Shown piece after piece: positions 9,349-13,389 of a stretch of 64,000 nucleotides of DNA. Source of the DNA: Promethearchaeota archaeon (GTDB lineage: Archaea; Asgardarchaeota; Lokiarchaeia; Sigyniarchaeales; SOKP01); assembly GCA_048939995.1 (NCBI GenBank), contig JBHLOY010000004.1, positions 32,001 through 96,000 of the forward strand, read 5' to 3'. The notes below the pieces were generated by a model. That model was not told the DNA's origin. It saw only the letters and a program-made list of their open reading frames with translations, and did no database searches. How positions within the stretch are numbered: the first letter of the stretch is position 1; each line of letters starts with the position of its first letter. Made by a program: the position numbers and the translations under genes.

Positions 9349-10197
9349 TTATTTATTTAATAAAAACAGTTGCAAAAGAAATTTAAACAGATTTAATTCG
9401 TTCAGTAATGATAAATTTGATACTAAATATTCAAAAATGTTTTCCTCTATAAAATAATTTAAGCATTTTTGGTAGCCTACCTCAGATTTAATCATATCTA
9501 TAATTCTTCTGATTAAATTCACAATCTGCTTCTCAACTATAATCATATCCACATTTTTTGGATCTATACTAATAATATTAATCCCCGTAGCTCTGTTAAA
9601 TGAAAATTTACTTAATTCTGGGTGCTGTTGTACATAATCATGACTTAAATAATTGTTGAACATACTTTCGATACGTTCATAAACCCTTTCTTTACTGTCA
9701 TGTTGAAAATGTCCTTCAATAACATTAATTAATAAATTTAAAATTTGTTGGAATACACCCAGTATATCAAAATACTCTGCCAAAGTGCTAATGTTTTCAG
9801 CTGTCAGCCATTGGGAGTAGTATTCATCAATTACATCTTTAAAAGGATTAAAAAGATCAGTATTTCCTTTCCATAACCCTTTCCATTCTTCTTTATTTTG
9901 TGCATATTGTTGTATAAAAGTCAACTTAATTATGTTCAATCTTGCTTTCAGAATGTCAGCATTGACATTTTTTTCAGCAGCAGCAATGAACAATAAGTTT
10001 AACTCTTTATCTTCTAAATATACCCATCTTAAACCAGACATATCAATGCTTTCAATATCTTGTTTTAATTCAAATACGGTAAATTGATTGATTGCTGTCA
10101 ATAAACCTGAAATCAAATCTTCGTTTAGAGCTAAATCTAAATAAGGTTTATATAACAAAGTTATTCCAGAATGCGAATCTAAAATCCAGATATTCAT
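9349..10197 (-). CDS. Longin-like domain protein (Asgard type)
   Basis: N-terminal IWILD..SGITLL...EDLISGLLTAINQF...IESIDM...LLFIAA pattern typical of longin/sensor-like folds. Confidence 0.6.
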   Translation of the reverse strand: MNIWILDSHSGITLLYKPYLDLALNEDLISGLLTAINQFTVFELKQDIESIDMSGLRWVYLEDKELNLLFIAAAEKNVNADILKARLNIIKLTFIQQYAQNKEEWKGLWKGNTDLFNPFKDVIDEYYSQWLTAENISTLAEYFDILGVFQQILNLLINVIEGHFQHDSKERVYERIESMFNNYLSHDYVQQHPELSKFSFNRATGINIISIDPKNVDMIIVEKQIVNLIRRIIDMIKSEVGYQKCLNYFIEENIFEYLVSNLSLLNELNLFKFLLQLFLLNK

Positions 10198-10287
10198 TTT
10201 GTTTTAACCCAAAATTATTAGATCATATTTCTAAGTAAAATATAAACGTTCTTTAATAAATTTCTTTGGTAAATGCAAATTTTCTCA

Positions 10288-10773
10288 TCATAATAGTTCT
10301 TCTAGATTTTTAGTTTTACAAAATTTCTCCAGATTTCTTAACATGTCTGTTAATTTCATCTGTAAAATAAGATCAGCAGCTCCACCAATTAAATTAAGGA
10401 AATCACTACTTAAAACGAAGTTTTCGATAAATACTCCCACTTTAGATTTATTAGAATTCAATTCTTTAATTCTTAATCTTCCTTCTAATTCTCTTACGTC
10501 TTTATTATTCCTTACGTTGAATTCAATTAATCTTCCTTTGTCTTTTTCCTCCCCTTTATCAACCAAAACTAATTCTCCTTCCATTTCTATTGGAACTTTA
10601 ATAATGTTAACTTCGTCATATACTTTAGTAAAAAGAACATTAGGAGCGATGAACTGGGCTTCTAACTTTTTGGTGGGTTTAATTTCTTCCCAAAATTTAG
10701 GTGAGTAAATTGCTTTTAATAAACTAGCTTTATTGCAATTGTCAATTTCTAAAATTTTCGAGATTTTAGTCAT
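10288..10773 (-). CDS. SRPBCC/START-like (CoxG-like) protein
   Basis: 161 aa, strand-helix-helix-multiple strands-long C-terminal helix (KLTDMLRNLEKFC). Confidence 0.5.
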   Translation of the reverse strand: MTKISKILEIDNCNKASLLKAIYSPKFWEEIKPTKKLEAQFIAPNVLFTKVYDEVNIIKVPIEMEGELVLVDKGEEKDKGRLIEFNVRNNKDVRELEGRLRIKELNSNKSKVGVFIENFVLSSDFLNLIGGAADLILQMKLTDMLRNLEKFCKTKNLEELL

Positions 10774-10866
10774 ATTGTCCTATCTCTCTATTTTATATAT
10801 TAAGTAAATAGTAATTTAGAAAGTTTATAATTATTTATCATTATATATCAAGAAAGACTCTAAAAA

Positions 10867-11067
10867 CTAAGAGTCTCGAAATAACCTTGTTTTCTCAATA
10901 GTTTGGCTTTCATGACAATGTGGGCAAATCCAAGTAGTTTCGCTTCTTTTAACTGATTTTATGCAGTCATTACATATGGTAATATCGCAAATACAATAAT
11001 AACACTCATTTAAGAGGTCTTCACAATTTTTTCCACAAATATAACAAAAAGGAGGATTTTTTGACAT
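10867..11067 (-). CDS. Stand-alone C4C4 RING-like zinc finger
   Basis: C-x2-C-x13-C-x-C-x4-C-x2-C-x12-C-x2-C. Confidence 0.65.
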   Translation of the reverse strand: MSKNPPFCYICGKNCEDLLNECYYCICDITICNDCIKSVKRSETTWICPHCHESQTIEKTRLFRDS

Positions 11068-11163
11068 TTTATCTTACAATTAACACATAATTTGATATTG
11101 TGTATTATACTTTTAATTTTAAAAATTATTTTATTTAATAAAGAATTAAGAATTTAGTTTATT

Positions 11164-11352
11164 ATGAGTAATCAACTACGATCTCGAATAACTCTATTGG
11201 GGCTTTTTAGTATTTTTTTTATCTATAAAGCCATTGAAGCAGTTATTAATCAATCTACTCCTGAATTTGCTTTGTGGTTTATGATAGCCATTGTTTATGT
11301 ACTCTCTCTTATAATTATGTACTTTGTGATAAAGAGGAAGCAAAAAGTTTAA
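11164..11352 (+). CDS. Small two-TM membrane protein
   Basis: Two hydrophobic helices, basic C-tail. Confidence 0.6.
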   Translation: MSNQLRSRITLLGLFSIFFIYKAIEAVINQSTPEFALWFMIAIVYVLSLIIMYFVIKRKQKV

Positions 11353-11368: not shown

Positions 11369-11632
11369 CTATTTTCTTTTCAAAAAATCAGCTAATAATC
11401 CATCTATTCCAAGAGTTTTAAATATAGTATCTTTAATATCCATCTGAATTTTCATATCCCGCATAATCTTAAGAGATTCTTCTAGTGTTTTTGAAAAATT
11501 CTCACTCATCTGCTTAATTGTATCAGAAGTTAGTTTTAACGATTCTCTGATTGCTTTATTTGTCTCATGTAACTCCTCAGCCATTCTATCCATACTTTTT
11601 CTCAATTCAGAAAGTTCCTCTTTTATACCCAT
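11369..11632 (-). CDS. Small coiled-coil protein
   Basis: Heptad pattern over about 65 aa, amphipathic C-terminus. Confidence 0.65.
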   Translation of the reverse strand: MGIKEELSELRKSMDRMAEELHETNKAIRESLKLTSDTIKQMSENFSKTLEESLKIMRDMKIQMDIKDTIFKTLGIDGLLADFLKRK

Positions 11633-11781
11633 AACTGCGTCATACTTTTATTGTTTTTCTTCTATTATTTTTGAAAATATTTCAAATTTTTAGTATCTTT
11701 CTAAAATTATTAAATATAATAAATATTCTTTAATATTTTCTATTTTATATTCAATATAATAAATTAAAAATTAATGGGATT

Positions 11782-11937
11782 ATGTCTGAGTGGAAATATA
11801 GACTTGATGAATCAGAATCCGATGATCCTTTTTGTTCAGGATGAGGAATAATTGATGGTGTGATTGCCTGTTTCCGATCTCTCAAGAAAAGACGTATGCA
11901 AACAAAAATAAACTCAAAAAAGAATCTCACAGATTAA
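11782..11937 (+). CDS. Putative 51-aa selenoprotein (CxxU), absent from ORF track
   Basis: MSEWKYRLDESESDDPFCSG-U-GIIDGVIACFRSLKKRRMQTKINSKKNLTD; TGA at 11842-11844, frame open 30 more codons to TAA; SECIS-like hairpin follows. Confidence 0.55.
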
Positions 11938-11945
11938 ATCAAAAA

Positions 11946-11998
11946 TATTAGGATCTAATCTTCAAAGCGATGTGAAAGCTCGAGATTAACGATAAATA
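11946..11998 (+). promoter_or_regulatory. Candidate eukaryote-type SECIS element (AGGA/GA core)
   Basis: UAUU/AAUA helix I; GA 11952-53 opposite GA 11991-92; UAAUCUU/GAGAUUA helix II; unpaired AA; AGC/GCU mini-stem. Confidence 0.5.
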
Positions 11999-12003
11999 AG
12001 TTC

Positions 12004-13389
12004 TTAAAATGGGTTATTAACCCCTTCTCCAACTTTTCTATAAATAAATCCTTTACTCTCAACTATTTTCTTCTCAAAGATATTTCTACCATCAATAATA
12101 ATTGGAGTTCTTACTCGTTTCTTTAAATCATCCAAATCTATATTGTAGTATTCCTTATGATTAGTTGTAAAGATTAAAACATCTGAATCAGATACACATT
12201 CATTAAAATCGTTTGTAAAGCCAGTTAAATTATAATTTTTTGATTTTACATATGGATCATGAGCTACGTAGAAAATATTATGTGAGTGATATTTCATTGT
12301 TAAGGTTTTGATAATATGTTCTGAAGGGGTATTTCGAGTATCATCTGTATTCGCTTTGTAAGACACTCCTAAAAGGCAAACCTTTATATTGTCTACTGGT
12401 TTTTTACTTTCATTCAAAGCATCTTCCATCAATTCTACCATGTGCTTAGGCATGTAATCATTTAGATTTCTGGAATCTGGCATAATTTTTATCATTGCTT
12501 TATTTTTTTTCTGAGTATATTGATTATACCCATATAAAAGTAGCCATGGATCCTTCGATAAACAATGACCTCCAACCCCAGATCCAGGAAAATGCATCAT
12601 CCTATCATCTCTTTGGTTAATTAGCGCGATAATCTCAAAAATATTTCGTCCAAAATCTTCACATAATAATGCCATCTCATTTGCAAATGCGATGTTTATG
12701 TCCCTGTATGCGTTCTCTATACATTTGGTTAGTTCTGCTGTCAAAGTATCAGTGATTTGTAAATCCCTCTTAACTACCTTTCTATATAAGAACTTGGCTT
12801 TTTCATTTGCTTCTTTACAACCCCCTCCAATTACACGTGGAATATCAGTAATAAATTCTATTAATTTCCCAGGCATGCCTCGTTCAAATGAAAATACAAG
12901 ATAAAAACCCTCACTTCTCTTTAATCCACTAACTTCTTCTAATATGGGTTGAACTATATTATCTGTTGTTCCCGGGGCAACTGTGGACTCGATAATGATA
13001 GTGACTCCATTTTTCATATGTTTAGAGATTTTTTCAGAAACTTCTATAAGTGATTCATATCTTGGTATTTTATCTTCAATCTCAACTGGAGTTTGAACAT
13101 CAATTAGAATATAGTCTGCTTCTGAACAGACATCAAATTTATCAGTTACATAGAATTTTTTGTCTCTCACTACTCTACTAATTAAATCATTTAACCCCGG
13201 TTCCTCACCTTCAAAGGGGTTTTTTCCTTCATTAAGCCAATCAATTTTCCATCCTGATCTCATTGACCTTCGTTGAATTCCAACAACATAAAAATCCTCT
13301 ACATCAGCTAACATAACTGCCATAGGGATCCCAACATACCCCATTCCAATAACTACAATTTTAGTGGGCACTTTATGTTCTAACCTCAA
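12004..13389 (-). CDS. Nucleotide-sugar dehydrogenase (UDP-ManNAc/UDP-GlcNAc dehydrogenase, WecC-like)
   Basis: GMGYVG, ESTVAPGTT, ENAYRDINIAFANE, PGSGVGGHCL, YKANTDDTRNTP, IIDGRN. Confidence 0.9.
   Translation of the reverse strand: MRLEHKVPTKIVVIGMGYVGIPMAVMLADVEDFYVVGIQRRSMRSGWKIDWLNEGKNPFEGEEPGLNDLISRVVRDKKFYVTDKFDVCSEADYILIDVQTPVEIEDKIPRYESLIEVSEKISKHMKNGVTIIIESTVAPGTTDNIVQPILEEVSGLKRSEGFYLVFSFERGMPGKLIEFITDIPRVIGGGCKEANEKAKFLYRKVVKRDLQITDTLTAELTKCIENAYRDINIAFANEMALLCEDFGRNIFEIIALINQRDDRMMHFPGSGVGGHCLSKDPWLLLYGYNQYTQKKNKAMIKIMPDSRNLNDYMPKHMVELMEDALNESKKPVDNIKVCLLGVSYKANTDDTRNTPSEHIIKTLTMKYHSHNIFYVAHDPYVKSKNYNLTGFTNDFNECVSDSDVLIFTTNHKEYYNIDLDDLKKRVRTPIIIDGRNIFEKKIVESKGFIYRKVGEGVNNPF

Follow-up and report, generated by a model that had tools for sequence, protein, structure and literature searches.

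A putative micro-selenoprotein family of Lokiarchaeia, overlooked by gene callers and followed by a candidate SECIS variant without a kink-turn

The window analyzed here, a stretch of 64,000 nucleotides from a Promethearchaeota (Lokiarchaeia) genome, contains, between a divergent coiled-coil gene and a convergent gene for a UDP-sugar dehydrogenase, a short reading frame that we denote gene A (Table 1). The frame includes a single in-frame TGA and, exactly as claimed in the preliminary description of this locus, stays open for 30 sense codons beyond it. Gene A is present in one copy in the source genome and is overlooked by gene callers within one large family of Asgard archaea. Its neighborhood is conserved by descent, and synteny across 142 loci revealed neither a redox enzyme or maturase as a conserved neighbor nor any linked peptidase, transporter, or dedicated maturase; in the source genome, there is no co-oriented downstream gene that gene A could regulate. 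A scan for sigma-70 promoters and terminators performed no better than chance. Adjoining gene A, the window holds a run of conserved small Asgard genes (9349-11352) encoding proteins of 282 aa (longin-like, by impression), 161 aa, 66 aa (RING-like), and 62 aa (a two-helix membrane protein), for which Pfam gave nothing above cut-off. The product of the divergent coiled-coil gene ends with G-I-D-G-L-L-A-D-F-L-K-R-K, a pattern that resembles the helix of the gene A product and may do so by chance.

Table 1. Features at the gene A locus, in coordinates of the window
Feature	Position	Strand	Details
Gene A, predicted micro-selenoprotein	11782..11937	+	51 codons plus TAA; ATG 11782, TAA 11935-37; one in-frame TGA, predicted to be read as Sec21
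MSEWK N-terminal motif	11782..11796	+	in 83 of 98 unique homologs; short helix 3-10 predicted with low confidence
C-[ST]-G-U motif	11833..11844	+	Cys18 (TGT) 11833-35; Sec21 (TGA) 11842-44
Predicted amphipathic helix running into a Lys/Arg-rich tail	11845..11934	+	AlphaFold helix 20-49; hydrophobic moment 0.5
Three-helix element, candidate SECIS variant	11923..11987	+	P1 11923-28/11982-87; P2 11931-40/11952-61 (overlaps TAA); P3 11966-68/11978-80
Apical loop of the element, 11 nt, A-rich	11941..11951	+	AAAAAUAUUAG
Divergent gene, 87-aa coiled-coil protein (context)	11369..11632	-	upstream neighbor kept in most loci
Convergent gene, UDP-sugar dehydrogenase (context)	12004..13389	-	

The read-through product matches 33 of the 36 genomes of the same genus (E<=8e-4), with one in-frame TGA in each, and the gene A profile matches 105 of the 134 genomes of its Lokiarchaeia (Promethearchaeota) family, all with the TGA. 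No copy turned up among 265 other Asgard genomes, where the profile gave 7 partial, TGA-free matches (E>=6e-4), or in viral contigs. One genus lacks it (0/6 genomes), with the flanks still present in genome G073. The public records that carry the gene A motif are MAGs of Promethearchaeota (Lokiarchaeia) or of archaea; a few are titled otherwise, and in these, the gene order is identical.

The in-frame TGA is invariant in all 30 aligned loci, and a metagenome search with a pattern that left the Sec codon free (NNN) returned 69 matches, every one in frame and with TGA, none with TAA or TAG; with TGC, TGT, or TGG at this codon, the pattern gave zero matches. Across the 30 loci, dN/dS is 0.27 ahead of the TGA and, past it, 0.28 in a first stretch of 12 codons and 0.23 in a second of 8 (descriptive values, the pairs being related). 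Third codon positions vary the most, and each of the other frames, sense or antisense, is broken in 22-30 loci. An overlapping antisense ORF (11751-11930) was rejected on this latter count. In the source genome, TGA accounts for only 16% of the stops of long ORFs, with TAA and TAG making up the remaining 84%, so that a true stop at codon 21 would be expected to drift. By these comparative measures, purifying selection acts on the frame of gene A both up to an invariant UGA and past it, and the genomes concerned encode the full Sec pathway. The original proposal of a selenoprotein is thus borne out by the retention of the TGA and by the coding constraint on both sides of it: the apparent UGA stop is almost certainly read as selenocysteine, and Sec insertion at this codon appears highly probable.

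A Cys homolog of gene A at the Sec position, which was also looked for following the preliminary description, was found in neither the protein nor the metagenome searches; Cys versions do exist in a sister gene, gene B (see below), the relation of which to gene A is weak. Among 1.84 billion representative proteins, 13 match gene A, 12 with Trp and 1 with Leu at the Sec site; the Trp was taken as an artefact of gene callers that read TGA as W (checked for P0009). In one metagenome contig (L111:3001-3144), Leu (TTA) replaces Sec, whereas the ORF, the RNA element described below, and a Sec-containing gene B are all kept. In two homologs (L016:1636-1638 and L025:1488-1490, minus strand), ATA occupies the position of the start codon and the rest of the gene is intact, which suggests a non-AUG start.

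The source genome encodes SepSecS, SelD (with a TGA of its own), PSTK, EFSec, and tRNA-Sec, that is, all the Sec machinery that was to be confirmed; PSTK and EFSec are clear best matches with scores below the curated cut-offs. The tRNA-Sec gene, located through the sequences of relatives, lies just upstream of SepSecS (C23:113475-113627, plus strand), has the anticodon TCA, and carries two introns, in the D arm and the T loop, because of which Rfam model RF01852 and ARAGORN failed on it; a relaxed ARAGORN search yielded only noise. The spliced RNA folds as an 89-nt cloverleaf with a long variable arm, and the gene is intron-free in the close relatives G029 and G019. The source genome also encodes TGA-containing genes of known families, namely, four HdrA/VhuD pairs, VhuU (C17:421695), and PrxL. 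The co-occurrence of gene A with the Sec machinery is uninformative because SepSecS is present in 152 of the 161 genomes of the class.

At the end of gene A, all 30 aligned loci fold into one three-helix shape. In the alignment, 94.9% of the cells are paired and two-sided changes occur in 14 of the 21 pairs, in a structure derived from the same sequences on which the pairing was scored; when pair partners were slid by 1-3 columns as a control, pairing dropped to 25-51%. The window copy, taken alone, folds no better than shuffled sequences (z -0.9) and is thus unexceptional by energy, so that the case for the element comes from covariation. A covariance model built on it has 1 match in the source genome and matches 107 of the 134 family genomes; one full-length locus (L269) shows no element by the search pattern. 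The apical loop, AAAAAUAUUAG, in which AAA is invariant, recurs without change in a canonical AUGA-GA SECIS on contig C16 of the source genome and differs by one base from that of an HdrA/VhuD SECIS on contig C26. The AUGA-GA kink-turn quartet itself is absent, with RTGA in register in 0 of 89 elements. The anticipated use of a 3' SECIS is thus matched by a SECIS-like element, though one without a kink-turn, a feature that the preliminary description did not notice. T-rich runs lie 3' of the element in many loci, and Rfam gave no match at the gene A locus. The euryarchaeal GAA/A bulge with a GC-rich upper stem is absent from the conserved alignment columns. An alternative SECIS with an AGGA core at 11951-54 and a GA near 11991 was considered and discarded: only 3 of 70 homologs carry the 3' GA at the required position, and the core bases pair within the covarying P2 stem. 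Counted from the UGA, the element lies 87±5 nt away in gene A and 82-93 nt away in gene B, and the stop of gene A lies 91±13 nt away; the element keeps the tighter distance, which argues that the Lys-rich tail doubles as a spacer.

Gene B, a second micro-gene, lies 20-220 nt downstream of gene A in 64 genomes of the family (for example, L011:1860-2009) and is absent from the window and from the source genome as a whole. Its product has an acidic-aromatic N-terminus, the motif D-D-C-Y-x-T-S/T-U (Cx4U), a W-Y helix, and a basic tail. The alignment of A with B on the Cys, the Sec, and the helix is weak (hhalign 45%, E 2e-4), and the two may be old paralogs. A few copies of B start at ATA or ATT-region codons. 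The number of elements follows the number of TGA genes, typically one where A stands alone and two where A is followed by B; where about 20 nt separate the two genes, a single element after B serves both. In genomes G127, G122, and G101, where B has TGT (Cys) in place of TGA, the element is missing, probably by one event, and at two other loci with a Cys version of B (G148 and L289), it is kept. Genome G107 carries three copies of B and five elements (C1:190007-191483 and 2131808-2132405), that is, a local expansion.

The same architecture recurs next to an enzyme gene. The PrxL gene of the source genome (C17:244111-244596, plus strand; L202:512-997) is followed, within the next 80 nt, by a three-helix element, and in the 29 PrxL loci examined, the three-helix architecture is found with P1 and P3 sequences that differ from those of gene A, about 21 of the loci folding so by minimum energy; the canonical SECIS pattern occurs after PrxL in none of the 29. 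For the original Loki assembly, PrxL genes with canonical elements have been published, so both element types occur among PrxL proteins. The PrxL redox box in this clade is U-P-Y-A, not UxxC.

The natural point of comparison for the gene A element is the lokiSECIS, or Asgard eSECIS-like type I (PMC4989117; PMC11227280), the 11-nt apical loop of which is A-rich (PMC4989117). Like the lokiSECIS, the gene A element sits at or over the stop codon, at a minimal distance from the UGA, presents an 11-nt apical loop with 5' adenines, and can serve two tandem genes with one copy, as happens with HdrA-VhuD among the lokiSECIS. It differs in that, in place of the AUGA-GA quartet, the 11-bp stem continues with Watson-Crick pairs, and in the addition of a third hairpin and a closing helix that make up a three-way junction. 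All described Asgard SECIS models require the GA core. We strongly infer from these comparisons that the element works like a SECIS yet fails the lokiSECIS type on the kink-turn. Four independent lines mark it as a probable SECIS: it is copied with or shared by gene B, is lost where one lineage of B has turned to Cys, keeps a fixed distance to the UGA, and is used by PrxL. It seems very likely that the 3' three-helix RNA directs the decoding of the gene A UGA.

More broadly, we lean toward a scenario in which the Lokiarchaeia of this family run two classes of SECIS, one with a kink-turn (HdrA/VhuD, VhuU, and SelD) and one kink-turn-free, with a three-way junction (A, B, and PrxL), that have only the A-rich loop in common; the Asgard machinery, in the absence of SBP2, would in that case recognize the loop and not the G-A core, and A and B would be fold-less redox micro-selenoproteins. 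SECIS recognition by archaea without SBP2 still awaits an explanation (PMC4989117; PMC11227280), and it is through the AUGA-GA kink-turn that the SECIS elements of Asgard archaea have been tied to those of eukaryotes. The occurrence in nature of an element with the loop but no kink-turn, in PrxL and two tiny genes, makes the SECIS determinant directly testable by swaps of parts. The three-helix type may also explain part of the 15% of Asgard selenoprotein genes for which no eSECIS-like structure was reported.

The homologs of A are 41-60 aa long and lack a globular fold. The AlphaFold model of A consists of two helices and no strands, with pLDDT of about 91 for residues 21-40 and low values elsewhere, in line with the initial expectation that the protein is too short for a thioredoxin fold. 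The most consistent features cluster around the Sec. A Cys precedes it by 2-7 residues in all 97 homologs, with a spacing of 2 in 87, 3 in 1, 4 in 4, and 7 in 5; CxxU, given in the preliminary description as the motif, is accordingly the majority form and is not fixed, with Cx3U, Cx4U, and Cx7U also in use. In the Cx7U clade, which represents a single event, the Cys is lost at -3 and present at -8, a position where none of the other 87 homologs has one. The Gly before Sec is found in 95 of 97 homologs and the Gly after it in only 60, so that only the first of the two flanking glycines originally pointed out is general. An Asp at Sec+4 (Asp25, 11854-56) is present in all 97; the second Cys noted in the helix (Cys30), in contrast, is not conserved (44/97). 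At the N-terminus, S2, E3, W4, and K5 are invariant in the 30 loci of the genus, with synonymous variation, and MSEWK is presumably a docking motif. The linker between this motif and the Sec varies in length and sequence, which places the Sec at residues 19-27 across homologs, and some genera have lost MSEWK with the C-T-G-U and the helix retained. The helix with a basic tail is indeed predicted (tail charge +7), in an amphipathic form and not as the short hydrophobic helix suggested at first, nor as a membrane span.

Neither Pfam nor NCBIfam gave anything above cut-off for A, as anticipated from the failure to recognize a family. Like the published Asgard selenoproteins, A has an in-frame UGA, a 3' SECIS-like element, and the same Sec machinery, and HdrA/VhuD also contain Cys-x-x-Sec; A is, however, homologous to none of the published Asgard or archaeal families. 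SELENOK and SELENOS of eukaryotes (PMC5981252) are likewise small, with one helix and a Sec beside a Gly in an unfolded stretch, and in SELENOS such an unfolded region supports reductase activity (PMC5981252). In these proteins, however, a true membrane span comes first and the Sec follows close to the C-terminus, whereas the Sec of A precedes an amphipathic, basic helix, so that the likeness, which had been drawn at the outset and extends to size and the Gly beside Sec, is an analogy; there is no Pfam or NCBIfam sequence match between them and A. VhuU, too, is an archaeal selenopeptide gene of about 50 codons overlooked by gene callers, but it has UxxCxxH, linkage to hydrogenase genes, and a canonical SECIS, none of which A shares. 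In thioredoxin-fold CxxU proteins (SELENOW/Rdx, GrdA, DUF1858; CxxC in DUF3088), Cys-x-x-Sec stands at the N-terminal end of a helix, as it does in A; in contrast to these, A has 51 aa, no beta-sheet, and variable Cys-Sec spacing, and the match to the CxxC-plus-helix stretch of DUF3088 is weak and sub-threshold (10 of 30 members, best E 0.006).

What, then, might such a peptide do? The reading that we prefer, at a probability of about 0.5, is that A is a minimal thiol/selenol redox device. The 3' RNA would present the A-rich 11-nt Lokiarchaeal loop on an 11-bp stem some 87 nt behind the UGA, with the three-way junction standing in for the G-A kink-turn. The Sec would occupy the N-cap position of the amphipathic, polybasic helix and bond reversibly, Se to S, with the Cys close by on a flexible loop. 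The helix and the basic tail would rest on a partner protein or on the surface of an anionic membrane, and MSEWK would dock a client or a reductant. In this capacity, A could act as a small shuttle for peroxide or disulfide exchange or as a redox switch, often beside the tandem peptide B. The proposal draws on established Sec chemistry and is supported by the upstream Cys in 97 of 97 homologs, the shift of this Cys to -8, and the Sec-to-Cys exchange in B.

Alternatively, A could be not a catalyst but a switch that reports selenium status, or else a cheap sink for Se or soft metals. As a switch, it would be made as a 20-aa MSEWK peptide, by termination at the UGA, when Se is low, and with Se, the docking motif would gain a helix that binds membranes or polyanions; as a sink, it would park one Se atom per 50 residues. 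Such roles would fit a conserved N-terminal motif joined to the Sec by a variable linker, the location of all the potential anchoring parts after the UGA, and the retention of the TGA without Cys substitution, together with the Leu variant that keeps the ORF; a non-canonical SECIS could, conceivably, also assign the gene another rank in the Se hierarchy. We nevertheless consider these roles unlikely: the Cys is always near the Sec, even when moved to -8, B tolerates the exchange of Sec for Cys, MSEWK is the part that some genera dispense with, and PrxL, an enzyme, uses the same type of RNA.

Also quite unlikely is a detached subunit, in which A, as VhuU does for the [NiFe] hydrogenase, would complement a larger metalloprotein or thioredoxin-fold protein in trans, by contributing either a ligand (the Sec) or a helix of the active site. 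The split VhuU in the same genome is a precedent, the invariant W4, G20, U21, and D25 suggest a fixed partner, and the faint likeness to DUF3088 points the same way; but a Cys-Sec spacing of 2-7 residues is ill-suited to a rigid metal site, the UxxCxxH is missing, the genome has its own VhuU and, as far as our search went, no DUF3088 gene, and no enzyme gene is linked to A. The earlier suggestion of a Sec-bearing peptide precursor (RiPP) did not hold up and is very improbable: the small size, the leader-like N-terminus of B, and methyltransferase and radical-SAM genes some 3.5-4.5 kb away could be cited for it, but these genes are not adjacent, with oppositely oriented genes in between, conservation peaks in the middle of the peptide and in the C-terminal helix with no leader/core pattern, and the peptidase, transporter, and maturase are wanting. 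Least credible of all is a true stop, whereby a 20-aa peptide would be followed by a conserved structured 3' RNA, a terminator or stability element, as the T-rich runs, the missing kink-turn, and an A-rich tail of possibly compositional origin might suggest, given that the expected drift to TAA or TAG is never seen, amino-acid constraint continues past the UGA, the distance of the element to the UGA (sd 5 nt) is tighter than that of the stop (sd 13 nt), and the element has a SECIS loop and also follows PrxL.

Literature searches, which covered few subscription journals, found nothing on gene A or on the three-helix RNA shape, and those for SECIS combined with a three-way junction returned nothing relevant. 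Judging from the comparisons above, gene A almost certainly represents an unpublished family of micro-selenoproteins with a new SECIS variant. The Asgard selenoproteome was described as seven families identified by homology (SelD, FrhA/VhuU, HdrA, VhuD, PrxL, an AhpF-N homolog, and a DsbA-like protein; PMC11227280), and a 2026 review lists 11 archaeal families in all (PMC13188914), a short list to which gene A would add one. The published surveys used homology or the canonical SECIS and, therefore, could not have found it.

The source genome offers further material of this kind. A well-formed canonical SECIS-like hairpin (AUGA, 8-bp stem, 11-nt loop, GA) on contig C17 (about 215785-215820, plus strand), with no obvious TGA gene upstream, may be an orphan or may belong to a further micro-selenoprotein that has been missed. 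Asgard selenoproteins do escape surveys based on homology, and another case in the same genome is a protein of about 153 aa with two adjacent in-frame TGA codons (H-A-D-U-U-A-D; C16:9345-9806, plus strand; L203:1046-1507), which has a canonical AUGA-GA SECIS and is absent from the seven published Asgard families. It has no Pfam match, and its fold is, by impression, possibly ubiquitin/MoaD-like. A paralog with the motif V-G-C-U-U lies on contig C11 (about 426337-426780, minus strand; L204), and homologs occur in 133 of the 161 genomes of the class, with both TGAs present in the family matches listed.
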